Source: an uncultured Clostridia bacterium (lineage in GTDB: Bacteria > Bacillota > Clostridia > Oscillospirales > Acutalibacteraceae). Taken from it: 64,000 bases of DNA. The notes beneath the pieces are model-generated. The model made no database searches, was not told the origin of the DNA, and was given only the letters and a program-made list of their open reading frames with translations. Positions 2,165-21,896 of the stretch are shown piece by piece. The translations under genes and the position numbers were made by a program. Positions within the stretch are counted from its first letter, which is position 1. Each line of letters opens with the position of its first letter. The stretch spans positions 9,330 to 73,329 of the forward strand of contig CANQOP010000007.1 in the NCBI GenBank assembly GCA_947625485.1. Reading direction: 5' to 3'.

Positions 2165-5100
2165 ATGATGTCACAATCAGAGAACAGACAGTCCTTGCAC
2201 AGTCTTTATTCTCCAAAGTTCGAGCACGATAACTGCGGTATCGGAGCAGTCGTAAACATCAAGGGTATAAAATCCCACGACACAGTAACCAACGCTCTCA
2301 CAATTGTTGAAACGCTTGAACACCGCGCAGGAAAGGACGCCGACGGTAAGACGGGAGACGGCGTAGGCATACTTTTACAGATTTCGCACAAGTTCTTTAA
2401 AAAAGCGGCTAAGAAGATAGGCATTAGCCTGCTCTCCGAGAGGGACTACGCTGTGGGTATGTTTTTCTTCCCTCAGAAGGAGCTTCTTCGCAATCAGGCT
2501 AAAAAAATGTTCGAGATTATCGCCGAAAAAGAGGGCCTCGAGGTGCTCGGCTGGCGTGAAGTCCCGTCCGATAATAACACTATCGGAAAGCGTGCACTCG
2601 ACTGTATGCCTAACATACAGCAGTGCTTTATCAAGCGTCCCGCAGGCGTTAAAAAGGGACTGGACTTCGACCGCAAGCTCTACGTTGCACGCCGTGTCTT
2701 TGAACAGAGCAACGAGGATACATATGTAGTTTCCCTATCGAGCAGGACGATTGTATATAAAGGTATGTTTCTTGTCGGCGATTTAAGGAAATTTTTCCTA
2801 GATTTGCAGGACGAAGACTATGAGTCGGCTATCGCTATGGTTCACTCCCGGTTCTCGACCAACACGAATCCCAGCTGGCAGAGAGCTCATCCGAACAGAA
2901 TGATAGTTCACAACGGTGAAATCAATACTATCCGCGGAAACGCGGACAAAATGCTAGCGCGAGAGGAAACTATGCGTTCCGAACACCTCAAAGGCGACCT
3001 GGACAAGGTTATCCCCGTCGTAAATACAGAGGGCTCCGACTCCGCTATGCTCGACAACACGCTTGAATTTCTCGTTATGAGCGGAATGGAGCTTCCGCTG
3101 GCGGTTATGATAACCATTCCCGAGCCTTGGGACAGGAACGGCACTATGACTCAGAAAAAGAAGGATTTCTACCAGTATTACGCAACTATGATGGAGCCGT
3201 GGGACGGTCCTGCTTCAATACTTTTCTCCGACGGCGATATTATGGGCGCTGTGCTCGACCGCAACGGTCTGCGCCCGTCGAGGTATTACATTACCGACGA
3301 CGGCAACCTTATACTATCTTCCGAGGTAGGTGCGCTTCCGATAAGCCCTGATAAAATCATATCCAAGGAAAGACTGCACCCCGGCAAAATGCTTCTTGTA
3401 GACACGGTTCAGGGAAAGCTTATCGACGACGACGAGCTCAAGGAGTATTACGCCTCAAAGCAGCCATACGGCGAGTGGCTCGACAGCAATCTTGTAAAAC
3501 TAAAGGATTTGAAAATTCCCAACGCAAAGGTAGAGGAACACCACCGCGAACAGCGCAAAAAGCTCCAGAAAGCTTTCGGATATACATACGAGGACGTTAT
3601 GACCTCTATCCTCCCTATGGCTAAAAACGGAAGTGAATCTATTTCCGCTATGGGCACAGACAGTCCTCTGGCAGTGCTTTCAAAAGAGCCTCAGCCGCTG
3701 TTTAACTATTTTAAACAGATGTTTGCTCAGGTTACAAATCCTCCGATTGACGCGATTCGCGAAGAAATTGTAACCTCTACTACCATATACATCGGCGAGG
3801 ACGGCAATATTCTTGAGGAAAAGCCCGAAAACTGCAAGGTTATGAAAATTAATAACCCTATCCTCACTTCAACCGATATTTTAAAACTCAAAAATATGAA
3901 AATCAGCGGTTTTAAAGTTGCCGTTATCCCTATTCTTTATTATAAGAACACAAAACTCTCAAAGGCGATAAAAAGGCTCTTTATCGAGGCTGACAAGGCT
4001 TACAACGACGGTGCTAACATCCTCATTCTCTCCGACCGCGGAGTTGACGAGTACCACCTCGCTATTCCCTCCCTGCTCGCAGTTTCGGCTCTGCACCAGC
4101 ACCTTGTTGTCACAAAGAAAAGAACCTCTCTCGCAATTGTGCTTGAGAGCGGCGAGCCGAGAGAAGTCCATCACTTTGCCACCCTGCTCGGATACGGTGC
4201 GAGCGCTGTCAATCCCTATCTCGCTCAGGAAACTATCCACGAGCTTATCCACGACGATTTGCTTGATAAGGATTACTACGCCGCTGTCAACGACTACAAC
4301 AGCGCTGTTCTCCACGGCATCGTAAAAATTGCGTCAAAAATGGGTATTTCGACCATTCAGTCCTACCAGGGTTCGCAGATTTTCGAGGCTATCGGCATAG
4401 GCAAAGACGTAATTGACGAATACTTTACAGGTACAGTCAGCAGAATAGGCGGTATCACTATAAAGGATATTGAAGAAAATGTCGATAAGCTCCACACTTC
4501 GGCGTTTGACCCTCTCGGACTGAGTGCCGATACAGAGCTTGAGTCGCGGGGAAGTCACAAATTCAGAAGCGGCAAGGAGGAACACCTATACAATCCGCAG
4601 ACAATTCATACCCTCCAGCACGCAGCGCGCACGAACGACTATGAGCTATACAAAAAGTATTCACATATGATTTCAGAAGAAATGGATCCCGTGAGCATAA
4701 GAGGACTTTTCGATTTCAACTACGCGGAAACACCCGTACCTTTAGAAGAGGTTGAGAGCGTTGAGTCAATAGTAAAACGTTTCAAAACGGGCGCTATGTC
4801 TTACGGCTCAATCTCACAGGAGGCTCACGAGGCTCTTGCTGTTGCAATGAACAGACTTCACGGAAAGTCCAACTCGGGCGAGGGCGGAGAAAGCATAGAG
4901 CGGCTGCTCACTAAGGGCACAGAAAACAACCGCTGCTCCGCTATCAAACAGGTAGCCTCGGGACGTTTCGGAGTAACCTCACGTTATCTTACATCGGCTG
5001 ACGAAATTCAGATAAAAATGGCTCAGGGCGCAAAGCCCGGCGAGGGCGGACACCTTCCGGGAAACAAGGTTTATCCGTGGATTGCGAAAACACGCCACTC

Positions 5101-6712
5101 CACGCCCGGCGTGTCGCTGATTTCTCCCCCGCCTCACCACGACATTTACTCCATTGAAGACTTGGCTCAGCTCATCTACGACCTAAAAAACGCAAATAAG
5201 GACGCGAGGATCTCCGTAAAACTCGTTTCCGAGTGCGGCGTCGGTACTGTTGCGGCAGGTGTTGCAAAGGCAGGCGCGGGCGTAATCCTCATTTCAGGTT
5301 ACGACGGCGGCACGGGAGCCGCACCGAGAAACTCGATTTACAACGCAGGTCTGCCGTGGGAGCTCGGTCTTGCCGAGGCTCACCAGACGCTTATTATGAA
5401 CGACCTTAGAAACAAGGTCGTCATTGAGACCGACGGTAAGCTGATGACAGGACGCGACGTAGCTATAGCCGCCATACTCGGAGCCGAGGAATACGGCTTT
5501 GCGACCGCTCCTCTGGTAACTCTCGGATGCGCGATGATGAGAGTTTGTAACCTTGATACCTGTCCGTTCGGCGTTGCAACGCAGAATCCCGAGCTTCGGA
5601 AAAAGTTCACAGGTAAACCCGATTACGTCGTAAACTTCATTCTCTTTGTAGCAAGAGAGCTAAGAGAGTATATGTCCATGCTCGGCGTGAGAACAATTGA
5701 TGAGCTTGTCGGAAGAATTGACCTCATAAAACCCAAGGCTAATCTTTCCGACCGCGAAAAAGAGATTGACCTCTCAAATATTCTCAATTGCGACTTCGCG
5801 GGAGGAAAGATTGAATACGCGAACAAGAGCGGCTATGACTTCAAACTCGAAGAAACAATTGACGAAAAGGTTATTGCAAAAAAGTTTAAGACGGCTCTCT
5901 CGAACGGCTCTAAAAAGGCCATAGAGATTGACGTAAAAAATACAGACCGTTCTCTCGGCACGATTTTCGGCTCGGAAATCACGAGAAAATACGACGATAA
6001 GCTTGAGGAAGATACTTACAAAGTAATATGCAACGGCTCGGGCGGTCAGAGCTTTGGCGCGTTTATTCCTAACGGCTTAACGCTTGAGCTTTCGGGCGAC
6101 AGCAACGACTACTTCGGAAAGGGACTTTCGGGCGGAAAGCTCGTTGTTTACCCGCCTAAAGGCTCTAAGTTCAAGGCTGACGAGAATATTATCGTCGGAA
6201 ATGTCGCGCTCTACGGCGCAACGAGCGGCAAGGCGTTTATAAACGGTGTTGCGGGAGAACGCTTCTGCGTGCGCAACTCCGGCGCTACGGCTGTTGTTGA
6301 GGGCGTAGGCGATCACGGCTGCGAATATATGACAGGCGGACGCGTTGTTGTAATCGGAAAAACAGGCAAAAACTTCGCCGCAGGCATGTCGGGAGGCGTT
6401 GCATATGTTCTCGACGAGGACAGAGACCTCTACACAAAACTTAACAAGGAAATGGTTCTTTTCACCGAAGTCAGCGAAAAATATGACATTATTGAGTTAA
6501 AGGAGCTCATAGGCGAGCACGTAAAGCACACAGACTCCGCTAAGGGTAAAGAAATACTTGAAAACTTTGATGAATACCTGCCGAAGTTTAAGAAAATAAT
6601 TCCGCACGACTACAAAAAGATGATGTCCGCAATCGCATCTATGGAAGAAAGAGGTCTCGACCACGAACAGGCAAAAATCGAGGCATTCTATCAAATCATA
6701 AACAACAAGTAA
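2165..6712 (+). CDS. gltB: Glutamate synthase large subunit
   Basis: 1515 aa; N-terminal CGIG amidotransferase, HSRFSTNT, FMN-binding region and GXGXG C-terminal domain. Confidence 0.97.
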   Translation: MMSQSENRQSLHSLYSPKFEHDNCGIGAVVNIKGIKSHDTVTNALTIVETLEHRAGKDADGKTGDGVGILLQISHKFFKKAAKKIGISLLSERDYAVGMFFFPQKELLRNQAKKMFEIIAEKEGLEVLGWREVPSDNNTIGKRALDCMPNIQQCFIKRPAGVKKGLDFDRKLYVARRVFEQSNEDTYVVSLSSRTIVYKGMFLVGDLRKFFLDLQDEDYESAIAMVHSRFSTNTNPSWQRAHPNRMIVHNGEINTIRGNADKMLAREETMRSEHLKGDLDKVIPVVNTEGSDSAMLDNTLEFLVMSGMELPLAVMITIPEPWDRNGTMTQKKKDFYQYYATMMEPWDGPASILFSDGDIMGAVLDRNGLRPSRYYITDDGNLILSSEVGALPISPDKIISKERLHPGKMLLVDTVQGKLIDDDELKEYYASKQPYGEWLDSNLVKLKDLKIPNAKVEEHHREQRKKLQKAFGYTYEDVMTSILPMAKNGSESISAMGTDSPLAVLSKEPQPLFNYFKQMFAQVTNPPIDAIREEIVTSTTIYIGEDGNILEEKPENCKVMKINNPILTSTDILKLKNMKISGFKVAVIPILYYKNTKLSKAIKRLFIEADKAYNDGANILILSDRGVDEYHLAIPSLLAVSALHQHLVVTKKRTSLAIVLESGEPREVHHFATLLGYGASAVNPYLAQETIHELIHDDLLDKDYYAAVNDYNSAVLHGIVKIASKMGISTIQSYQGSQIFEAIGIGKDVIDEYFTGTVSRIGGITIKDIEENVDKLHTSAFDPLGLSADTELESRGSHKFRSGKEEHLYNPQTIHTLQHAARTNDYELYKKYSHMISEEMDPVSIRGLFDFNYAETPVPLEEVESVESIVKRFKTGAMSYGSISQEAHEALAVAMNRLHGKSNSGEGGESIERLLTKGTENNRCSAIKQVASGRFGVTSRYLTSADEIQIKMAQGAKPGEGGHLPGNKVYPWIAKTRHSTPGVSLISPPPHHDIYSIEDLAQLIYDLKNANKDARISVKLVSECGVGTVAAGVAKAGAGVILISGYDGGTGAAPRNSIYNAGLPWELGLAEAHQTLIMNDLRNKVVIETDGKLMTGRDVAIAAILGAEEYGFATAPLVTLGCAMMRVCNLDTCPFGVATQNPELRKKFTGKPDYVVNFILFVARELREYMSMLGVRTIDELVGRIDLIKPKANLSDREKEIDLSNILNCDFAGGKIEYANKSGYDFKLEETIDEKVIAKKFKTALSNGSKKAIEIDVKNTDRSLGTIFGSEITRKYDDKLEEDTYKVICNGSGGQSFGAFIPNGLTLELSGDSNDYFGKGLSGGKLVVYPPKGSKFKADENIIVGNVALYGATSGKAFINGVAGERFCVRNSGATAVVEGVGDHGCEYMTGGRVVVIGKTGKNFAAGMSGGVAYVLDEDRDLYTKLNKEMVLFTEVSEKYDIIELKELIGEHVKHTDSAKGKEILENFDEYLPKFKKIIPHDYKKMMSAIASMEERGLDHEQAKIEAFYQIINNK

Positions 6713-6726
6713 GGAGGAGAACAGCA

Positions 6727-8211
6727 ATGGGAAAGCCAACAGGATTTATGGATTATAAACGCGAGGAAGCCCCTGCATTCTCCGTAAAAGAACGTATAAA
6801 AAATTATGACGAGTTTCACGAGCCGCTTAGTAAAGCCGAGCAGGCAAAGCAGGGCGCGAGATGTATGGAGTGCGGCGTTCCGTTCTGTCAGTCGGGTATG
6901 ATGATAGGCGGTATGTTCTCGGGCTGTCCGCTTAACAATCTTATTCCCGAGTGGAACGACCTTATATTCAAAGGCGCCTGGGAGCAGGCGTATCAGAGGC
7001 TGAGAATAACGAACAACTTCCCCGAGTTCACATCACGCGTATGTCCCGCCTTGTGTGAAAAGGCGTGCACCTGCGGAGCTAACGGCGACGCGGTAACCGT
7101 CAGGAACAACGAATACAGCATTGTTGAAAACGCCTACAGTGAGGGCTATGCCGCGCCGAATACGCCGAAGGTAAGAACGGGCAAGAAGATAGCAATAATA
7201 GGCTCTGGACCTTCGGGACTTGCGGCGGCAGACCAGCTCAACCGCAGAGGTCACAGCGTCACTGTTTTTGAGCGCAGCGACCGCGTGGGCGGACTGCTAA
7301 TGTACGGTATTCCGAATATGAAACTCGAGAAAAACGTAATCGACCGCCGAATAAATATAATGAAAGAAGAGGGCGTAGATTTCAGAACAAACATCAACGT
7401 TGGCAGGGATATAGAACCGAGCGAAATCCTGAGGGATTTCGACAGAGTAATACTCGCCTGCGGAGCCTCAAATCCCCGTGATATCAATGTAACGGGGCGA
7501 GACGCAAAGGGCATTCATTTTGCGGTTGATTTCCTCAAATCAACCACAAAAGCTCTTTTGGACAGCGATTTAAAGGAGGGTACATACATTTCTGCGAAAG
7601 GCAAAAACGTAATGGTAATCGGCGGAGGCGACACAGGCAACGACTGCGTGGGTACAAGCGTAAGACACGGCGCAAAATCCGTTTTACAGCTTGAAATGAT
7701 GCCGAAGCTGCCCGACGAAAGGACAAAAGATAATCCCTGGCCGCAGTGGCCCAAAGTCTGTAAGACCGACTACGGTCAGGAAGAGGCTATCGAGGTATTC
7801 GGAAGTGACCCGAGAGTGTACCAAACGACCGTCAAGGAGTTCTTAAAGGACAAGAAAGGAAACCTCAAAGGAGCCGTGCTCGTAAAGCTTAACCCTGAAA
7901 AAGACGAGAAAACGGGCAGACTTATTATGAAGGAAGTCGAAGGCTCCGAGTACACGGTTGACGTTGAGCTTGTGCTGATTGCCGCGGGATTTCTCGGAAG
8001 CGAAAGCTACGTTACGAAAGCGTTCGGCGTAGAAACCGACGGAAGAACAAACGTCGCAACGGAAAAAAATTCATTCAAAACGAATGTCAAAAATGTCTTT
8101 ACCGCAGGCGATATGCACAGAGGTCAGTCGCTTGTCGTGTGGGCAATCCGCGAGGGCAGAGACTGCGCACGCGAAGTAGACGAAAGCCTTATGGGCTATA
8201 CAAATCTATAA
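6727..8211 (+). CDS. gltD: Glutamate synthase small subunit
   Basis: RCMECGVPFC, CPALCEKAC Fe-S motifs; GSGPSG and GGGDTG dinucleotide-binding motifs; directly follows gltB. Confidence 0.97.
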   Translation: MGKPTGFMDYKREEAPAFSVKERIKNYDEFHEPLSKAEQAKQGARCMECGVPFCQSGMMIGGMFSGCPLNNLIPEWNDLIFKGAWEQAYQRLRITNNFPEFTSRVCPALCEKACTCGANGDAVTVRNNEYSIVENAYSEGYAAPNTPKVRTGKKIAIIGSGPSGLAAADQLNRRGHSVTVFERSDRVGGLLMYGIPNMKLEKNVIDRRINIMKEEGVDFRTNINVGRDIEPSEILRDFDRVILACGASNPRDINVTGRDAKGIHFAVDFLKSTTKALLDSDLKEGTYISAKGKNVMVIGGGDTGNDCVGTSVRHGAKSVLQLEMMPKLPDERTKDNPWPQWPKVCKTDYGQEEAIEVFGSDPRVYQTTVKEFLKDKKGNLKGAVLVKLNPEKDEKTGRLIMKEVEGSEYTVDVELVLIAAGFLGSESYVTKAFGVETDGRTNVATEKNSFKTNVKNVFTAGDMHRGQSLVVWAIREGRDCAREVDESLMGYTNL

Positions 8212-8372: not shown

Positions 8373-8957
8373 ATGGAATTTAGCTTATCTTTTTTTATAA
8401 ACAGCGTGCTTTTCGGCGTTGGACTTGCGATGGATGCCTTCTCAGTGTCTATGGCGAATGGTCTGAACGAACCGTATATGAGGAAAAAAAGAATAAATCT
8501 TATTGCAGGCACTTTCGCTTTTTTTCAAATACTTATGCCGCTTATCGGATGGTTTTGCATACACACTATCGCAACGCTGTTCCGGTCATTTCAACTGCTA
8601 ATACCGTGGATTGCGCTCGTTTTGTTGCTCTATATCGGCGGGAAAATGCTGATTGAGGGCGTGCGCAATAAGGACGTTGAGGGTGAGAAAGCTCCTGTTT
8701 GTATGGGCGCCCTGATGATGCAGGGAATAGCCACCTCGATAGACGCGCTGTCGGTCGGCTTTACAATATCCGACTATTCGTTCGGCGCGGCACTGGCGGA
8801 GGCGCTGATTATCGGTATAATAACGTTTTTAATATGCATAGGCGGGCTGCTTATCGGAAAAACCTTCGGCACAAAGCTTGCAGGAAAGGCGTCAATAATC
8901 GGCGGAGCAATTCTTATAATCATCGGTATAGAAATTTTTATTAAGGGAATTACCTAA
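8373..8957 (+). CDS. mntP: Manganese efflux pump MntP family
   Basis: GLAMDAFSVS and ATSIDALSVG repeats; six hydrophobic segments; ATG at 8373 after GGAGGA. Confidence 0.9.
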   Translation: MEFSLSFFINSVLFGVGLAMDAFSVSMANGLNEPYMRKKRINLIAGTFAFFQILMPLIGWFCIHTIATLFRSFQLLIPWIALVLLLYIGGKMLIEGVRNKDVEGEKAPVCMGALMMQGIATSIDALSVGFTISDYSFGAALAEALIIGIITFLICIGGLLIGKTFGTKLAGKASIIGGAILIIIGIEIFIKGIT

Positions 8958-15764: not shown

Positions 15765-17063
15765 TTATTTGATTGCGTCGAATGCTTCCTGTAAATCGAA
15801 GAGAATATCGTCGATGTGCTCTGTTCCTACTGAAAGGCGAATTGTGTTCGGCTTAATTCCCTGCTCAATAAGCTCGTCTCCTGTGAGCTGGCTGTGAGTT
15901 GTTGACGCCGGATGGATAGCCAACGACTTAACGTCGGCAACATTTGCAAGAAGTGAAAACACTTGCAGATTATCGATAAACTTCTTGGCTTTCTCCTCGT
16001 CACCCTTTATCTCAAAGGTGAATATTGAGCCTCCTCCATTCGGAAAGTATTTCTTATAAAGCTCAGAGTAACCTGAGTCTTCAAGGGACGGATGATTGAC
16101 GCGCTCGACCTGTGGGTGGTTTGAAAGAAACTCAACAACCTTAGCGGTATTGTAAGCGTGTCTCTCTACGCGCAGTGAGAGAGTCTCAAGTCCCTGCAAA
16201 AAGATAAACGCGTGAAACGGAGAAAGCGTTGCTCCCGTGTCGCGGAGAAGGATTGCACGGATATATGTAACAAACGCGGCTCCCGGAGCAGCATCTGTGA
16301 ATATCGCTCCGTGATATGACGGGTTCGGCTCTGAGAACTGCGAAAATTTTCCGCTTGCAGTCCAATCAAACTTGCCGCTCTCAATAATTACGCCGCCTAT
16401 AGCCGTGCCGTGACCGCCGATAAACTTTGTAGCGGAATGAACTACAATGTCCGCGCCGTACTCGATAGGTCTTAGAAGATAAGGAGTCGCGAAAGTACTG
16501 TCCACAACGAGGGGAATATTGTGTTTATGTGCAACAGCCGCAACTTTCTCTATATCAATGATATTCGAGTTTGGATTGCCAAGGGTCTCGATGTAAACAG
16601 CTTTAGTGTTCTCGTCTATAGCCGACTCAAAAGCGCCCTCCTCGTCGGGATCAACAAATTTAGTTGTTATGCCGTAGTTCGGAAGCGTGTGCTCAAAAAG
16701 ATTGTAACTTCCGCCGTATATGGTCTTAGCAGATACAATATTGTCTCCTGCGTTTGCAAGAGCCTGAATCGTATAGGTAACGGCGGCAGCTCCCGACGCT
16801 ACTGCAAGCGCAGCAGAGCCACCCTCGAGAGCGGCGATACGCTCCTCAAATACGCTTTGAGTCGGGTTAGTAAGTCTGCCGTAAATATTCCCCGCGTCAC
16901 GGAGACTAAAACGGTCAGCCGCGTGCTGACTGTTGCGGAACACATAGGAAGTGGTGGCGTAAATCGGAACGGCACGAGCGTCAGTAACGGGGTCGGCCTG
17001 TTCCTGACCTACGTGAAGCTGTAATGTTTCAAATTTTAAATTTCTTTCTTTTAAAGTACTCAT
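15765..17063 (-). CDS. metY: O-acetylhomoserine aminocarboxypropyltransferase / sulfhydrylase
   Basis: IYGRLTNPT, PLP lysine motif HSATKFIGGHG, NVAD.KSL.IHPASTTH. Real start is ATG 17063 (MSTLKER); the 5' extension of the listed ORF is non-coding-like. Confidence 0.92.
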   Translation of the reverse strand: MSTLKERNLKFETLQLHVGQEQADPVTDARAVPIYATTSYVFRNSQHAADRFSLRDAGNIYGRLTNPTQSVFEERIAALEGGSAALAVASGAAAVTYTIQALANAGDNIVSAKTIYGGSYNLFEHTLPNYGITTKFVDPDEEGAFESAIDENTKAVYIETLGNPNSNIIDIEKVAAVAHKHNIPLVVDSTFATPYLLRPIEYGADIVVHSATKFIGGHGTAIGGVIIESGKFDWTASGKFSQFSEPNPSYHGAIFTDAAPGAAFVTYIRAILLRDTGATLSPFHAFIFLQGLETLSLRVERHAYNTAKVVEFLSNHPQVERVNHPSLEDSGYSELYKKYFPNGGGSIFTFEIKGDEEKAKKFIDNLQVFSLLANVADVKSLAIHPASTTHSQLTGDELIEQGIKPNTIRLSVGTEHIDDILFDLQEAFDAIK

Positions 17064-17208
17064 TGTAATACCTCTTTCATAAAACATTTTTAATGTACTG
17101 ATTTTGTTCTGATTTTGTGCTTTTGTGTGAATTTCAATTTCACATTCGCACAGTATTACAACATCGTTCATTGAGTAAAAACATACTCTCAAAACCTTTC
17201 CTATTTTG

Positions 17209-17225
17209 CCTATAGATTTTATAGG
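17209..17225. promoter_or_regulatory. Palindromic operator just downstream of the metY promoter (possible Rrf2/CymR-like site)
   Basis: CCTATA-N5-TATAGG, downstream of a minus-strand TTGACA at about 17265-17270. The regulator identity is an inference. Confidence 0.45.
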
Positions 17226-17392
17226 TTTTATTTTCTGGATATATAATACCATAATTTTCAGATTTGTCAATACCAATTTTAAAATTTTTATAAGACGCAC
17301 AGTAAAAACATATGAAACTTCGTGCACAACAAATATTATTTACATATGTTATTAATATTTCCTATTCGACAAAACATTACACTAATTAACCC

Positions 17393-17421
17393 TTGACAAA
17401 CCCGCAATAACGCGCTATAAT
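17393..17421 (+). promoter_or_regulatory. SigA promoter of tRNA-fMet
   Basis: Perfect TTGACA-N17-TATAAT. Confidence 0.85.
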
Positions 17422-17450
17422 GTAAAAGCTGAATACGACAGCGCAGATAT

Positions 17451-17526
<76 letters not shown>

Positions 17527-17533
17527 GTTCTAT

Positions 17534-17579
17534 TGTAGAGTAGGTTTTGTAATTCAAAAAATTGCAAAACCTACCCTGC
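17534..17579 (+). terminator. Long hairpin terminator after tRNA-fMet
   Basis: 21-bp stem with one mismatch and G-T wobbles, loop CAAA. Confidence 0.75.
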
Positions 17580-17639
17580 AAAAAATTTTTTAATATTATT
17601 TACCTTATAGGGTAGTAATATATTTGATTGGGTTTTTGT

Positions 17640-17850
17640 ATCGTTCCCCATTCAGCAACGCCGGATAGTCAACCAACCTATCCGTACTCTCCTCACAACG
17701 TCTCCCGACATGATGAGTGAGTTGTCGATGTAGTTACAAACAAGATTATCCCCTAATCTCAATAAATCTTGCAGAGTGGATAAGGCTCTTATCCATACGG
17801 AAGTTAGCTACAGAATAGGTCGGCTCGCTACTCCTATGCTGGCACATAGG
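17640..17850. ncRNA. Candidate multi-hairpin structured RNA of unknown class
   Basis: At least five short inverted-repeat stems in about 210 nt of GC-richer, ORF-free sequence inside an AT-rich island. Confidence 0.3.
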
Positions 17851-17987
17851 TTAAGTTTTTAAATTCTTAGTTTAAAGATTACGGCGAAACTATTATCCGC
17901 AGGCTGGATATATTCGATACAAATATCCTATTCAGTTGTAAATTTATAAAAAGTAAGACCTGCGCCGCAGGTAAACAGTACAGGTCT

Positions 17988-18150
17988 TGACAAATCTATC
18001 AAAAACACTTAGAATTAAGTGCAATTGGAGCTTCACAAGTCGAGTGCTCTTTACTCGGCGCAAGCTCATAAGTTGTTGGTCGCAGCTTATGGGCTGTGGG
18101 GCTTATTTTCTATATATTTAAATTATATACCATATATATAGATTTGTCAA
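17988..18150. ncRNA. Convergent sense/antisense small-RNA pair
   Basis: Plus-strand TTGACA-N17-TAGAAT (17988-18016) and minus-strand TTGACA-N17-TATAAT (18150-18122) face each other across two hairpins. Confidence 0.45.
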
Positions 18151-18182
18151 TATATGGAAAATTATATTTTTAAAAAATATCA

Positions 18183-18218
18183 AAAAAATAGCAGGTGTCC
18201 CTCGGAGGGACACCTGCT
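18183..18218 (-). terminator. Terminator after toxN
   Basis: AGCAGGTGTCCCTC-c-GAGGGACACCTGCT followed by a T-run on the minus strand, immediately after the stop. Confidence 0.8.
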
Positions 18219-18224
18219 TAACTT

Positions 18225-18830
18225 TTACGATAAACCGCCAAAACCTTGACCGCCTAAATTTTGAGAGCCGATATTCGGAATTTCGTTTGGCTGAATAGGT
18301 TCACTTGTTTGTGCATTTGGTTGTTGTTTATGAGCTTGATAATAATCTACAGACTTTGCTTCCAACAGCAAGAAATTACAACAACGATTTTTTAAATTAA
18401 AATTAGCTGAACCATCTGATATTTTTTGATATAAATTGCGAGCTTTATTTAAAATGTAGTCTTTTTTAGAATTGCACCACGTCAACTGATTGTTAAGGAG
18501 ATTTCTATACATATCATTATCATAACTTCTATGAAGGTCATTAGGATTAACCTTTGTTGCCAGTTCAGGAGCAATAGGTATCATATTGTTAAGATTTATC
18601 GCACCCCATACCCCACCATTTATTTTTATAAAATCAATTTGATTTTTCATTTTTAAGTGCTTAGGTTTTGGAGAAGATAACGGTGCATAATATGTATGTC
18701 TATTCACTTCAAGTAATACGCCCAAGAACGGACGAGTGCTTTTCTGTTGCATTGTATAAGGCACACATTTATCAAATTGCCTTAAATAATCGCAATAATC
18801 AGAATTAACCGTATAAAATGATAAACTCAT
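18225..18830 (-). CDS. toxN: Type III toxin-antitoxin endoribonuclease, ToxN/AbiQ family
   Basis: FYTVNSDYCDYLRQFD..VP, RPFLGVLL, YYAPLSSPKPKH, INLNNMIPI motifs; preceded by a terminator and tandem repeats; ATG at 18830. Confidence 0.92.
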   Translation of the reverse strand: MSLSFYTVNSDYCDYLRQFDKCVPYTMQQKSTRPFLGVLLEVNRHTYYAPLSSPKPKHLKMKNQIDFIKINGGVWGAINLNNMIPIAPELATKVNPNDLHRSYDNDMYRNLLNNQLTWCNSKKDYILNKARNLYQKISDGSANFNLKNRCCNFLLLEAKSVDYYQAHKQQPNAQTSEPIQPNEIPNIGSQNLGGQGFGGLS

Positions 18831-18843
18831 ATAAAATCCTTTC

Positions 18844-18880
18844 AAAAAAAGGAAACGGGACTGATAAGCTCAGCCCCGTA
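18844..18880 (-). terminator. Terminator between toxI and toxN
   Basis: CGGGGCTGA...TCAGTCCCG followed by TTTCCTTTTTTT on the minus strand; canonical position for type III TA. Confidence 0.85.
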
Positions 18881-18994
18881 CTTTTTTAGTTCCCACTTAT
18901 TGGTAGGGTACACCGCTTTTTTAGCTCCCACTTATTGGTAGGGTACACCGCTTTTTTAGCTCCCACTTATTGGTAGGGTACACCGCTTTTTAAG
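18881..18994 (-). ncRNA. toxI: ToxI antitoxin array: three 35-nt repeats plus a short partial
   Basis: Units at 18881, 18916 and 18951. RNA GGUGUACCCUACCAAUAAGUGGGAGCUAAAAAAGC can form an H-type pseudoknot (GGU/ACC, CCC/GGG). Confidence 0.92.
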
Positions 18995-18996
18995 TG

Positions 18997-19049
18997 TAGG
19001 GATTACTCCCTTCATTTATTATTATACTCAAAAATAAAAATATGTCAAT
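18997..19049 (-). promoter_or_regulatory. toxIN promoter and leader, copy A
   Basis: TTGACA-N16-TATAAT followed by an AGGGA-gtaa-TCCCT hairpin. Confidence 0.85.
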
Positions 19050-19064
19050 TAAGATTGAGTAAAA

Positions 19065-19172
19065 TTATAATTTATTAATTAAATGTTTATCATTGTCCCT
19101 CCGAGGGACATCTGCTTCTTGGAGATATTCTATGTAATCATTCGAAACATTATAGAATTTTAGTTTATCCAT
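19065..19172 (-). pseudogene. Truncated second ToxN-family toxin (35 codons)
   Basis: AGGAG RBS, then MDKLKFYNVSNDYIEYLQEADVP, which matches the ToxN N-terminal FY.V..DY..YL...D pattern; homology is lost at a palindrome and a stop follows. Confidence 0.75.
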
Positions 19173-19188
19173 ATCAAACTCCTAATAC

Positions 19189-19216
19189 AAAAAGGGAACG
19201 GTAATCGTCCCCTTTT
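19189..19216 (-). terminator. Terminator between second antitoxin array and truncated toxin
   Basis: AAAAGGGGACG-atta-cCGTTCCCTTTTT on the minus strand. Confidence 0.75.
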
Positions 19217-19231
19217 CGCTTTCATTATAAT

Positions 19232-19298
19232 CCACATTTAGAGCTGTGGAACACTCTGCATAAATCACCCACATTTAGAGCTGTGGAACACTCTGCAT
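19232..19298 (-). ncRNA. Second type III antitoxin-like array: two 30-nt identical cores, 37-nt period
   Basis: Cores at 19232-19261 and 19269-19298. RNA AGAGU-GUU-CCACA-GCUCU-AAA-UGUGG forms a two-stem H-type pseudoknot. Confidence 0.8.
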
Positions 19299-19351
19299 TA
19301 GGGATTACTCCCTTTATTTATTATTATACTCAAAAATAAAAATATGTCAAT
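19299..19351 (-). promoter_or_regulatory. toxIN promoter and leader, copy B
   Basis: 52 of 53 nt identical to 18997-19049. Confidence 0.85.
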
Positions 19352-19393
19352 GAAATTTAATTGTTAACCCCTTTGCAACCGGTAGAAAACAGC

Positions 19394-19615
19394 TTAAACG
19401 GAGGTTTTAGCTGTTTTCTTTTTTTTATCATCCTGACCATCAAGGATATCCGCATATTCATGATACTTATGCGGTCGTATAGGTCTCTCGAACGGCGGAG
19501 TACTAAAATATAACAGTAAGCACTCCCCTATATTCTTATAATTGCTCACATACTCGTAGCCTACAAGCTCGCCGTTTCTAATTCGCTTTTTAATAGTGTT
19601 GTGGTATGAATACAT
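19394..19615 (-). CDS. Small hypothetical protein (73 aa)
   Basis: Protein-like composition (IGECLLLYFSTPPFERPIRPHKY) and a downstream hairpin GAAAACAGC...GCTGTTTTC. No family recognised with certainty. Confidence 0.6.
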   Translation of the reverse strand: MYSYHNTIKKRIRNGELVGYEYVSNYKNIGECLLLYFSTPPFERPIRPHKYHEYADILDGQDDKKKKTAKTSV

Positions 19616-19914
19616 TGCGATTTCTCTTTTCTCAATTTTTTATTATTAGCATATCAAATAAACGCTGTTATAAACTCTATTTTCTCTGTTTTAGCTTATT
19701 TAAATTCACCTTTTGTAAACAAAACCCATAATTTTAAAAACGTTTTTTGTTGAAAATGCTCAAAAAATGTCTAAATTCGAAAAAGCTGTCACACATTAAA
19801 TTCAAATTTTAATTTATTTTTATATAATTCGACTAATTAGTTACAAAAAGATTACAACGTTTATTTCTTTTTAGGAATATTTTTATGCAAAGTCCCATAA
19901 ATACTGGATTTGTA

Positions 19915-19943
19915 TTGACAGTCGGTTACGAATTTGTTACAAT
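19915..19943 (+). promoter_or_regulatory. SigA promoter of the Ig/peptidase gene
   Basis: TTGACA-N17-TACAAT. Confidence 0.7.
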
Positions 19944-20070
19944 ATGTTCATTGTTTGTGCTCTAATCGAATTAAAACGACCGAAGATGAAAAGCCGCTTT
20001 CCTTTTTCCCCTATAATTTCCCTATAATTATAAGGATTTAAAAATGCGGCCCGACAGATAAGGAGATTTT

Positions 20071-20916
20071 ATGAAGAAAAAGAAAACAATACTTTGTGCG
20101 GCTGCTGCTCTTTCAGTAATCAGCGCGAGCTGTTTAGGGGCGTCAGCGGCAAGTCCTGAGCCGACAAAAACAGTTTTTCTCAACGTAAGTTTGGAAGAAA
20201 TCGTACCGAAACCATTTTCACTAAAGATAACACTGAACAAGAAAAATGTAGTCGGCAATGTCGGCAAAAAAATCAGACTCAAGTCCGAAACTAACGCGGA
20301 CGGATATGACGTTACATACTCGAGTACCAATAATAAGGTCGCCGTCGTCAGCAAAAACGGAGTTATAAAGCTCAAGCGACGCGGCAAGGCAAATATCATC
20401 GCAAGCTGCAACAGCGTTCAAAAGATATGCAAAGTAACGTCAAAACCAAAAAAACACATTATCAAGGACGTGCGTAACACGATTAAGGACGAAACTATGA
20501 GCAGCATAGCGGCTCAAATAGGATGTCAGACAGATTACGCATACCCGAACTCATCTATAATGTGCAGCGCATATTCATACGCATATGCTTACTATCAGGT
20601 GACGGGTCAGCTCAGAACGCCGGGAAGTTTCTGGTGCGGCGGATGCACCTGGGAGGGCGGCACATACAGCCGTTACGGCTCGAGTACGGCAATGCTTTCC
20701 GCAATTAAGGAGTCACTCGACGAAAACAAGGCGTGCGTAGGACTACTAAGCGTGGGACGTTCGTCCACACATTACGTTACATTCTACGGTTACACAGGTA
20801 ACGGCGACACGCTCAGCGATTTTAAAATTCTCGACCCGTGGGACGGTAAACTTACAACCGGCGCGGGCTACGGTTACAGCTACACGGGCTATCACGTAGC
20901 GACCGTTAATGCATAA
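20071..20916 (+). CDS. Secreted protein with Lys-rich Ig-like (Big_2) domain and C-terminal papain-like (C39-like) domain
   Basis: Signal peptide; YSSTNNKVAVVSKNG.I Big_2 pattern; putative Cys-His-Asp triad in MCSAYS, THYVT and ILDPW. Confidence 0.7.
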   Translation: MKKKKTILCAAAALSVISASCLGASAASPEPTKTVFLNVSLEEIVPKPFSLKITLNKKNVVGNVGKKIRLKSETNADGYDVTYSSTNNKVAVVSKNGVIKLKRRGKANIIASCNSVQKICKVTSKPKKHIIKDVRNTIKDETMSSIAAQIGCQTDYAYPNSSIMCSAYSYAYAYYQVTGQLRTPGSFWCGGCTWEGGTYSRYGSSTAMLSAIKESLDENKACVGLLSVGRSSTHYVTFYGYTGNGDTLSDFKILDPWDGKLTTGAGYGYSYTGYHVATVNA

Positions 20917-21156
20917 ACAAGATATTTAAGGCTGTTGTGATTACAACAGCCTTTTATATTAAACGGGGATTAACTTTTGAAAGTGTATACACGTTAAGGA
21001 CGCAACCAATCGAAAATATTATTTTTAGGAAAAGTTAGGAAAAGCATTTCCGTAAAACATAAAGAAAACCGAGAACAGCCGCTCTATTGAGCGGCTGTTC
21101 CCGGATTTAGAAGTTTTGAAATTAACGTGAAAACGTGGATGTCTGTTTAATAGTCT

Positions 21157-21408
21157 TCAGCAAACCTCATCATAAAGGTTAAGTCTGAAAAGCTTGCTCT
21201 CATCAGTCTTGTTCTCGCAGACTATAGACGCCTCTGCAATCTTTCCGCCCTCAATAAGCTGAGTAAGACCGACAAGCTGTGAAAGCTTACTGCGGAGATT
21301 GAGCTTATCTCCGTCCTTGGTAACGAGAAATACGTTACCCTCGCAGGTATCAAGCACAGCTAAAAATTCAGAAACGTTAACGTCATGCATGTTGAGAATA
21401 GGTGTCAT
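21157..21408 (-). CDS. HPr-like small protein
   Basis: 83 aa; V.L...DG..LNLRS matches the HPr Ser46 region; strong AAGGAGG RBS. Confidence 0.65.
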   Translation of the reverse strand: MTPILNMHDVNVSEFLAVLDTCEGNVFLVTKDGDKLNLRSKLSQLVGLTQLIEGGKIAEASIVCENKTDESKLFRLNLYDEVC

Positions 21409-21896
21409 AACTTTCTCCTCCTTTTCAATTTTCTGTTGCCATTTACCATTTGACGATTTTATTCCCCTCGCGGCCGCGCTCTCATAATTCGCGTGCGATG
21501 GGTATATGAAAGCCGTCGCATACTGCGCACGCTTTCGTGAAATGTACGGTTGTGTGATCCGTAGTCAGGCGGACTTTTTCCTGACGATTATATTATACTC
21601 ATTTTTTCGTGAAAGTCAACAATTTATCTCGCTTTTATTTGTAGATAATGACGAACTAAAAGCAAAAATAGCTAACTTAATTTACTATAATATGTGCAAT
21701 TAGCACAATAAAATTAATTTAGGTTTACACACTTCGACTTTTTTGTCTGTGTATTTTCGTCAAAATTCACTTGTTTTGAAAAGAATGAATGTGATCCTTT
21801 TGCACTTTTAACAAATTTAATATACGGCTTAATATTGCCCGACTATAAAAAATATAGTATAATATCGGGTATAAAGAGGTTTTCGGAGGAAAAGAT

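Follow-up and report, generated by a model that had tools for sequence, protein, structure and literature searches.

Tandem type III toxin-antitoxin cassettes, one intact and one reduced to its RNA antitoxin, in an uncultured Clostridia bacterium

The locus described here lies in a 64,000-nt stretch of contig CANQOP010000007.1 (positions 9,330 to 73,329), hereafter the window, to which all unprefixed coordinates refer. The contig belongs to the assembly GCA_947625485.1 of an uncultured Clostridia bacterium of the family Acutalibacteraceae, whose 1.77-Mb genome is 97% complete and comprises 37 contigs. Two type III toxin-antitoxin cassettes are arranged head-to-tail on the minus strand of the window, cassette B upstream and cassette A downstream (Table 1). 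The first has lost its toxin gene, and the second is an apparently intact ToxIN system. Each begins with a block composed of a TTGACA-16-TATAAT promoter, identical to the consensus at 12 of 12 positions, and of a hairpin of sequence AGGGA-GUAA-UCCCU. The two blocks (18997-19052 and 19299-19354) are identical at 54 of 56 positions, with both mismatches outside the hexamers and the hairpin stem. The repeat families of the ToxI-A and ToxI-B arrays that follow them are devoid of any sequence relation. A previous sequence-only reading of the locus had described two head-to-tail minus-strand cassettes of the same layout, and all of the features that it listed were recovered in place. The 52/53 identity that it reported between 53-bp promoter/leader modules extends to the 54/56 given above, a comparison of the repeats confirmed that the 35-nt x3 and 37-nt period x2 arrays are unrelated, and the H-type pseudoknots that it proposed for both are supported by covariation, as detailed below.

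The toxin of cassette A, ToxN-A, matches the Pfam family PF13958 over profile positions 1-157 of 159 (E = 2.4e-51). The nearest solved structure is that of ToxN_Bt (4ATO, E = 3.7e-21), followed by 2XD0, 7D8O and AbiQ (4GLK), and ToxN-A is the sole ToxN in the genome. The ToxI-A repeats, of unit sequence GCGGUGUACCCUACCAAUAAGUGGGAGCUAAAAAA, are 95-100% identical to one another. Their pseudoknot is conserved in 15-19 diverse units from other loci, with 98-100% of the cells paired and compensatory changes in two of the three S2 pairs (CUC/GAG, UCC/GGA, CGC/GCG). None of 500 shuffles reached the observed pairing, and slid controls gave 28-65%. With a ToxN domain, 35-nt tandem repeats and a terminator on one transcription unit, and a two-stem pseudoknot, cassette A is, as judged from its sequence, an intact canonical ToxIN.

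Cassette B is different. Its toxin gene, toxN-B, is represented by a remnant that aligns with PF13958 at positions 1-24 only (E = 0.018) and has 48% identity to residues 1-25 of the ToxN of G004, a genome of the same family; these limits agree with the cut after about 21 ToxN-like codons previously noted. No other fragment of a G004-type toxin was detected in 17000-21500. As toxN-B is reduced to codons 1-21 and the genome harbours no second ToxN, cassette B is a remnant rather than a complete ToxIN. Searching for intact relatives of the cassette, a check that the sequence-only reading had suggested, recovered two. The counterpart in G004 comprises the promoter, the hairpin, three 37-nt repeats, the terminator and a 172-residue ToxN (PF13958, E = 4e-36), and its DNA is 70% identical to that of the window over the second repeat, the terminator and the beginning of toxN. 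The other relative, in G348, has a toxin with 55% identity, and a degenerate second copy is also present there. The terminator has the same position in both, and the divergent 3' tail of the last ToxI-B unit (..AUAAUG) is the native array end in both as well. DNA patterns yielded no further B-type arrays, relatives being recovered through the toxin protein only, and in viral and metagenome contigs the ToxI-B junction patterns gave nothing but single chance matches or unrelated repeats.

The ToxI-B pseudoknot is formed by AGAGU/GCUCU (S1) and UCCAC/GUGGG or GUGGA (S2), and an A17-U26 pair can lengthen S2 in the window. Among nine units from the window, G004 and G348 loci, 91% of the cells are paired (S1 columns 5-9/18-22, S2 columns 12-16/27-31) and five pairs are changed on both sides. 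Again, none of 500 shuffles reached the observed value; slid controls gave 33-42%. A conserved GAUUU|AUGC junction in the array is a candidate site for processing by a B-type ToxN. Both window units pair completely, the fold of the whole B transcript has a z of -5.4, and no damaging change was found in the promoter, the hairpin, the two units or the terminator. The repeats of cassette B are homologous to arrays that precede intact ToxN proteins. The cassette is a genuine orphan antitoxin with a predicted specificity different from that of A, and its toxin has been deleted. This bears out the earlier proposal of one intact toxIN next to an orphan antitoxin of another specificity.

The truncation point is informative. 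The ToxN-like part of the remnant ends at GAA GCA GAT, followed by AGCAGATGTCCCTCGGAGGGACA (T', 19116-19094), which corresponds to the left part and the core of T, the palindromic terminator found after cassette A (AGCAGGTGTCCCTCCGAGGGACACCTGCT; 22/23 complementary). T' and the spacer that follows it, up to the -35 hexamer of promoter P_A, align with T and its spacer, up to the -35 hexamer of a third promoter, P_C, with a score of 66, compared with 26 +- 4.4 (maximum 40) for shuffles. As the homology between T' and T extends through the spacer to the promoter, the repeat unit of the locus consists of the terminator palindrome, the spacer and the promoter, and three transcription units are strung together. 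T' has neither the outer right arm nor the U-run and should therefore no longer terminate transcription. Most simply, toxN-B would have been deleted from about codon 21 as far as the beginning of the palindromic terminator that belonged to it, with a shared AAGCAG as the probable junction.

Table 1. Features of the cassette array and its boundary, in window coordinates
Feature	Positions	Strand	Description
Promoter P_B (cassette B)	19323-19350	-	TTGACA-16-TATAAT, 12/12 consensus
Leader hairpin B	19300-19313	-	AGGGA-GUAA-UCCCU, GNRA loop, starts 9 nt past the -10; fold
ToxI-B array	19225-19298	-	Two 37-nt pseudoknot repeats, 94% identical; repeat family D4
Terminator B	19189-19216	-	AAAAGGGGACG-auuac-CGUUCCCUUUUU; 14-bp stem in the minimum-free-energy fold
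toxN-B remnant ORF (open reading frame)	19065-19172	-	35 codons from an ATG at 19172, AGGAG upstream; ToxN-like codons 1-21 only (19172-19110)
T', partial copy of the palindromic terminator	19094-19116	-	In-frame fusion to toxN-B codon ~20
Promoter P_A (cassette A)	19021-19048	-	12/12 consensus
Leader hairpin A	18998-19011	-	Identical to hairpin B
ToxI-A array	18881-18994	-	3.2 repeats x 35 nt; S1 GGUG/UACC, S2 CCC/GGG, A6 tail
Terminator toxI-A/toxN-A	18855-18879	-	10-bp stem followed by a T-run
toxN-A	18225-18830	-	201 aa; ToxN/AbiQ endoribonuclease domain and Q/P-rich C-terminal tail of ~40 aa
T, 13-bp palindromic bidirectional terminator	18190-18218	-	Core GTGTCCCTC(C/G)GAGGGACAC; cassette boundary
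Promoter P_C, third, non-repeat transcription unit	18122-18150	-	12/12 consensus; follows T, same layout

We favour, with a probability of about 0.6, the interpretation that cassette A is an armed ToxIN and that cassette B is an antidote-only unit, which would still make two ToxI-B pseudoknots; these would not affect ToxN-A and could neutralise a toxin of the ToxN-B type coming from outside. P_A would transcribe three ToxI-A pseudoknots, with the terminator limiting read-through into toxN-A. As for ToxIN_Pa and ToxIN_Bt, ToxN-A presumably cleaves the array at the A-tracts, and the units set free would keep it inactive. Cassette B was once a second toxIN of another specificity, the nearest intact relatives of which are those of G004 and G348. 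Following the loss of toxN-B, a ToxI-B RNA of approximately 125 nt, predicted to extend from about 19316 to about 19189, would be made constitutively, with no toxin partner in the genome and no effect expected on ToxN-A. It would neutralise a ToxN-B-type ribonuclease arriving by plasmid, phage or conjugative element. Such an anti-addiction role would agree with the fact, described below, that orphan ToxI-A arrays are conserved in ToxN-free genomes.

A DNA search of the family showed that the ToxI-A array and its promoter match five other genomes at 75-90% identity, four of which have no toxN. An exact scan of species-representative genomes then identified 98 ToxI-A-type arrays, mostly in Clostridia, with others in Erysipelotrichaceae, Fusobacterium, Synergistales, Spirochaetia and Anaerolineae. 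Only arrays with two well-kept units could enter this tally, many of the genomes are metagenome-assembled genomes (MAGs), and related species are not independent. A full toxN is present downstream of 52 of the 98 arrays, 21 have no trace of ToxN despite at least 1.1 kb of downstream sequence, 10 are followed by a broken toxN (a fragment, an internal deletion or a 1.1-kb insertion), and 15 are at a contig end. Among the broken genes, toxN of locus L119 is cut at codon 24, and L111 retains the C-terminal piece only.

The orphan ToxI-A arrays resemble the others in repeat number (3.05 vs 3.0) and in the proportion of fully paired units (89% vs 94%). A syntenic orphan is found in three Lachnospiraceae species between genes for a 2-hydroxyacid dehydrogenase and a DUF1015 protein. 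The module is 89% identical, compared with 76% for the flanking gene (80% for its protein); the changes in its repeats affect the loop only, and the A6 tract is kept. Other orphans neighbour ispD/nrdD, ychF, folD or spoIIGA, and one is located beside Toprim and IS30 genes; several orphan arrays are thus flanked by housekeeping genes. All nine orphan-bearing genomes that were searched are devoid of PF13958 matches, in contrast with the controls G000 and G004.

Several of these loci have unusual organizations. In L014 (contig C33 of G022, ~8430-8810), a single promoter with its hairpin precedes two repeat families and a terminator, with no toxin: two units of ~49 nt, of the same kind as those of a cptIN array in L078, are followed by two ToxI-A units. 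No ToxN match was found in this 99%-complete genome. In G218 (L011/L130) and G335 (L012), a three-unit orphan ToxI-A array is located ~50 nt after a long-arm tRNA, the 3' end of which occupies the place expected for a -35, and the array may be co-transcribed with the tRNA. The two arrays are ~95% identical, and the DNA beyond is ~70% identical; in G335, an integrase gene abuts a tRNA fragment. Lastly, in Defluviitalea phaphyphila Alg1 (L143, NZ_JWID01000021.1), a toxI array and its toxN are followed by a second toxN paralogue with no array of its own; both genes contain runs of N.

The main rival explanation is that cassette B is a neutral decay intermediate with no present function, whose array is intact only because the deletion is recent. 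We regard this as a possible account, clearly less probable than an antidote-only role. Decay does occur: toxN is broken in 10 of the 83 informative ToxI-A loci and in five loci of the family sample (L172, L174, L175, L176 and L183), and L174, L175, L176 and L183 keep a single repeat, showing that arrays decay too. Nevertheless, orphan ToxI-A arrays have persisted across speciation with changes in the loop only, they equal toxin-linked arrays in repeat number and pairing, and they are present in genomes with no ToxN. In the window itself, the promoter, the hairpin, both units and the terminator of cassette B are undamaged.

Several points weigh against our interpretation and temper these arguments. 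No other ToxI-B-type orphan was found, the pattern scans giving chance matches only; any sign that orphans are under selection is therefore drawn from arrays of the ToxI-A type and not from the window array. The island that contains the locus is strain-specific. Because the scan required two well-kept units, decayed orphans were invisible to it and the intactness of the orphans is overstated. Toxin-first decay is the sole viable order of loss, and some intact orphans are therefore expected even without function. Finally, no strain variants were recovered, only identical contigs, and the deletion could be very recent.

The other explanations fare much less well. Cassette B might serve as an extra upstream promoter, with transcripts that escape terminator B passing through the crippled T' to raise the expression of ToxI-A and toxN-A. 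The loss of the outer right arm and U-run of T' and the perfect consensus of P_B would permit this, but terminator B is strong, with a 14-bp hairpin and a U-run, and any additional input would be small because P_A, 302 nt downstream, is itself a perfect consensus promoter. We thus consider this improbable. That ToxI-B cross-regulates ToxN-A as a second or back-up antitoxin seems slightly less plausible still. Physical proximity and the common promoter block are all that speaks for it, whereas the ToxN-A orthologues in L137, L082 and L038 are accompanied by ToxI-A-type repeats only, ToxN-A is ~34% identical to a cassette-B-type toxin, and the two kinds of repeats have no common sequence, ToxI-B being devoid of the A6 tract that closes each ToxI-A unit. 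In addition, no functional cross-talk takes place between the Pectobacterium and Bacillus ToxIN systems, according to a review (PMC5086642). An assembly artefact or chimera at the origin of the duplicated block is barely credible: the assembly does comprise 37 contigs, and Logan contigs of other runs are interrupted within the ToxI-A repeats, but the two blocks, each with unique flanks, differ at two positions, three unrelated assemblies show this tandem layout as well, and a 74.5-kb ENA contig (sample ERZ27249684), which may share its origin with this genome assembly, is identical over the 6.6 kb compared.

In the best explanation, the locus lies in a strain-specific island next to a tRNA-Met gene and consists of toxin-antitoxin cassettes joined into a short array by a reused junction block. 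The island, from 17527 to ~21000, contains no phage genes, and toxN is the sole ORF of more than 100 residues between the tRNA and position 20070. We found no counterpart of the island by synteny within the genus. A permissive Rfam scan of 16500-20500 identified the tRNA as sole match and no ToxI family, and no further copy of the promoter/hairpin block, the palindrome or ToxN was found elsewhere in the genome. A third candidate array in the same genome (C4:12201-12257), adjacent to a promoter-like match, was rejected because it lies inside a coding region. Exact-protein look-ups of ToxN-A and of a 73-residue ORF upstream of the cassettes returned identical contigs only.

Other elements of the island are less well defined. 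The P_C unit on the minus strand opposes a plus-strand promoter (17987-18015), and their transcripts would overlap within 17945-18150. These transcripts include a 40-codon plus-strand ORF (18019-18141) that codes for a peptide with a hydrophobic C-terminal half. The P_C region thus resembles a type I toxin/antisense pair, and the island may hold three toxin-antitoxin units. Between the tRNA-Met gene and the P_C unit, ~300 nt (17627-17931) are hairpin-rich and devoid of ORFs; the ends of this stretch, 17627-17643 and 17915-17931, are complementary, and no Rfam match was obtained at E<=1. Directly upstream of cassette B, the 73-residue ORF (19394-19615, minus strand) is served by a promoter-like site and a terminator of its own and matches no Pfam or NCBIfam family.

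The 5' hairpins of the two cassettes belong to a general feature of these loci. Among the 95 ToxI-A-type arrays with enough upstream sequence, 78 have a recognizable promoter and 73 a hairpin before the first repeat. The loop is of the GNRA type in 49 of these hairpins, GAAA in 32 cases. The 48 promoter-anchored GNRA hairpins have 27 different stems; they start 7-10 nt past the -10, at or next to the 5' end of the transcript, and end 5-8 nt before the first GGUG. Both window hairpins conform, with a GUAA loop and a start 9 nt past the -10. In Firmicutes, 5'-terminal stem-loops affect RNase J/Y-dependent decay, and hence the likeliest role of the GNRA hairpin would be, by analogy, the protection of the 5' end of the antitoxin transcript. 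Hairpins are mentioned by Blower 2012 (PMC3401426) within the pseudoknot only, and we found no description there of such a strictly placed 5'-terminal GNRA hairpin. The general feature is the architecture, namely a consensus promoter, a 5'-terminal GNRA hairpin, the array and a terminator.

We also looked for second copies of the promoter/leader within each of the 98 fetched ToxI-A-type loci. In L082, a Clostridiales MAG, a cptIN cassette with 43-45-nt repeats precedes a toxIN-A cassette. Its toxin matches CptN (4RMO, E = 6e-12) and scores 66 bits with NF047359 (E = 3e-18), below the 90-bit cutoff of that model. Upstream of each of the two cassettes stands GTCCCTC(C/G)GAGGGAC and then, after a short spacer, TTGACATAAAATA..GTATAATAATAGTACA with the GNRA hairpin GGGAGAAATCCC, and the two blocks are identical at 58 of 62 positions. 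The palindrome core occurs eight times in 8 kb of L082, as the boundary of a HigBA-like type II pair, of an SSB gene, of small ORFs and of cptIN and toxIN, and the array adjoins coupling-protein (TraG)- and primase-like genes; all these genes are named from their translated ORFs. Within the same locus (DXYF01000026.1, oriented 4500-7650), palindromes are paired three times, ~120 nt apart, around a conserved segment, which may be a small element repeated within an island that is conjugative or mobilisable. In L137, a Ruminococcus MAG, a ToxN-A orthologue is located between palindrome pairs and followed by a type II pair. In L078, a Lacrimispora MAG, a toxIN-A cassette precedes a cptIN cassette; 79 nt of upstream-plus-promoter sequence are identical, and the two hairpins differ through compensatory changes.

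At the other end of the cassettes, the tail of ToxN-A (18225-18345) ends with GQGFGGLS, and the L137 orthologue (L137 1140-1244) has a similar tail (..DIGGFGFTQGS). The C-terminus of the L082 CptN is loosely like that of ToxN-A. The Q/P-rich tail may belong to the conserved junction, but for CptN the evidence from DNA is weak. A tail-coding segment common to the L082 CptN and ToxN-A is unproven, with an alignment score that stems mostly from the palindrome.

Thus, the proposal that a constant block is reused while toxin-antitoxin pairs are swapped holds in L082 and L078 but not across the family. The palindrome was found in only two of 401 sampled family genomes, namely G000 (two copies) and one other, on a sortase/pilin contig, and the family matches to the 56-nt block were rejected as copies of it, being plain promoters of unrelated genes. 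For these reasons the block marks one lineage of mobile cassette arrays, not the family at large. The 2.8-kb contig that bears the only other family palindrome (L200, G189:C182) carries a transposase-adaptor-like sequence, CTGTCTCTTATACACATCT, at each of its ends, which suggests that library adaptors were left untrimmed in that assembly. No palindrome or B repeat was found in viral contigs. Cassette exchange through ordinary homologous recombination at the junction block would suffice to account for the pattern, and cassettes of different type III families behind a reused junction provide a concrete substrate for cassette swapping.

A broader interpretation may be considered, for which our confidence is low. 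Toxin-less arrays might be widespread, selected, stand-alone RNA antidote genes, exchanged with complete type III and type II cassettes as modules via a conserved junction (toxin tail, palindromic terminator, consensus promoter and 5' GNRA hairpin) on conjugative or mobilisable elements of gut Clostridia. The window would then be a snapshot with one armed and one antidote-only cassette.

ToxIN, CptIN and phage pseudo-ToxI are already known (PMC3401426, PMC5086642, PMC3475682, PMC4627078). At the sequence level, cassette A has the same promoter, 35-nt repeats, terminator and toxin organization as ToxIN of Bacillus thuringiensis pAW63 and Pectobacterium atrosepticum (4ATO, 2XD0) and as AbiQ/antiQ (4GLK). 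It likewise has a two-stem pseudoknot with A-rich tails, and the B repeats precede ToxN-family toxins in G004 and G348. The differences are the absence of a toxin in cassette B, the 5'-terminal GNRA hairpin of both cassettes and the additional Q/P-rich tail of ~40 residues in ToxN-A. CptIN of Eubacterium rectale (4RMO) has relatives in tandem with toxIN behind a common block in L082 and L078, but the window contains no CptN or CptI-type repeat.

Pseudo-ToxI of Pectobacterium phage PhiTE is a toxin-less ToxI-type repeat RNA that can neutralise ToxN made elsewhere (PMC3475682; PMC5086642). ToxI-B is similarly a ToxI-type repeat RNA without its own toxin. However, it is chromosomal and outside any phage context, its origin from a complete cassette that lost the toxin by deletion is visible, and its promoter, leader and terminator are still the native ones; the cell, not a virus, would be protected. 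As it is not encoded in a phage genome, it does not belong with phage pseudo-ToxI. Phage-borne candidates do occur among our loci. Two IMG/VR phage contigs of 124 kb and 81.5 kb (L039 and L041) carry a single ToxI-A-like unit, AAAAGCGGTGAACCCTACCGATTTAAGTGTGGAATTAAAAAAG, with no toxN, ~90 nt upstream of a tRNA gene cluster, which makes it a candidate for a pseudo-ToxI-like decoy. The 22-kb Lactococcus phage vL_313A (L203, PQ594014.1) has two ToxI/antiQ-like units at 1500-1577, between Holliday-junction resolvase and endolysin genes and with no toxin gene there, a possible decoy against an AbiQ-type defence.

Chromosomal anti-addiction antitoxins are known for type II systems, e.g. chromosomal ccd against F-plasmid ccd. 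By analogy, ToxI-B might be an antidote kept apart from its toxin that could disarm a related incoming toxin, with the difference that this antidote would be a processed RNA pseudoknot array and not a protein. The short, unrelated cassettes separated by a recurring palindrome (in L082, in L137 and at T/T') also recall integron-like arrays. The integron reading was rejected, however, since no integrase is found in the island, the palindrome is a perfect terminator-like hairpin of 27-29 nt without attC features, and each cassette has its own promoter.

In studies of type III systems, toxin and RNA are treated as a fixed pair with a role in abortive phage infection or plasmid stabilisation, and we found no description of orphan or solitary type III antitoxins in the searchable literature. 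What is new here is the clean anatomy of the junction (palindrome, spacer, promoter and hairpin) that joins an armed and a disarmed cassette, with intact two-family counterparts elsewhere. In addition, the RNA antidote often outlives its toxin, in 25-37% of arrays of one ToxI type among 98 species-level genomes, and it can be kept intact across species whose genomes have no ToxN. Antidotes thus appear to be kept and shuffled without toxins in many gut bacteria. The window ToxI-B and the G004 and G348 toxins are named pairs for a direct test. If the orphans are functional, they would give bacteria RNA 'vaccines' against the ribonuclease toxins that incoming mobile elements carry, and phages or plasmids with the same arrays would disarm host ToxIN defences. 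This would bear on the ways in which abortive-infection systems can be countered, as well as on the long-standing question of the purpose of chromosomal antitoxins.

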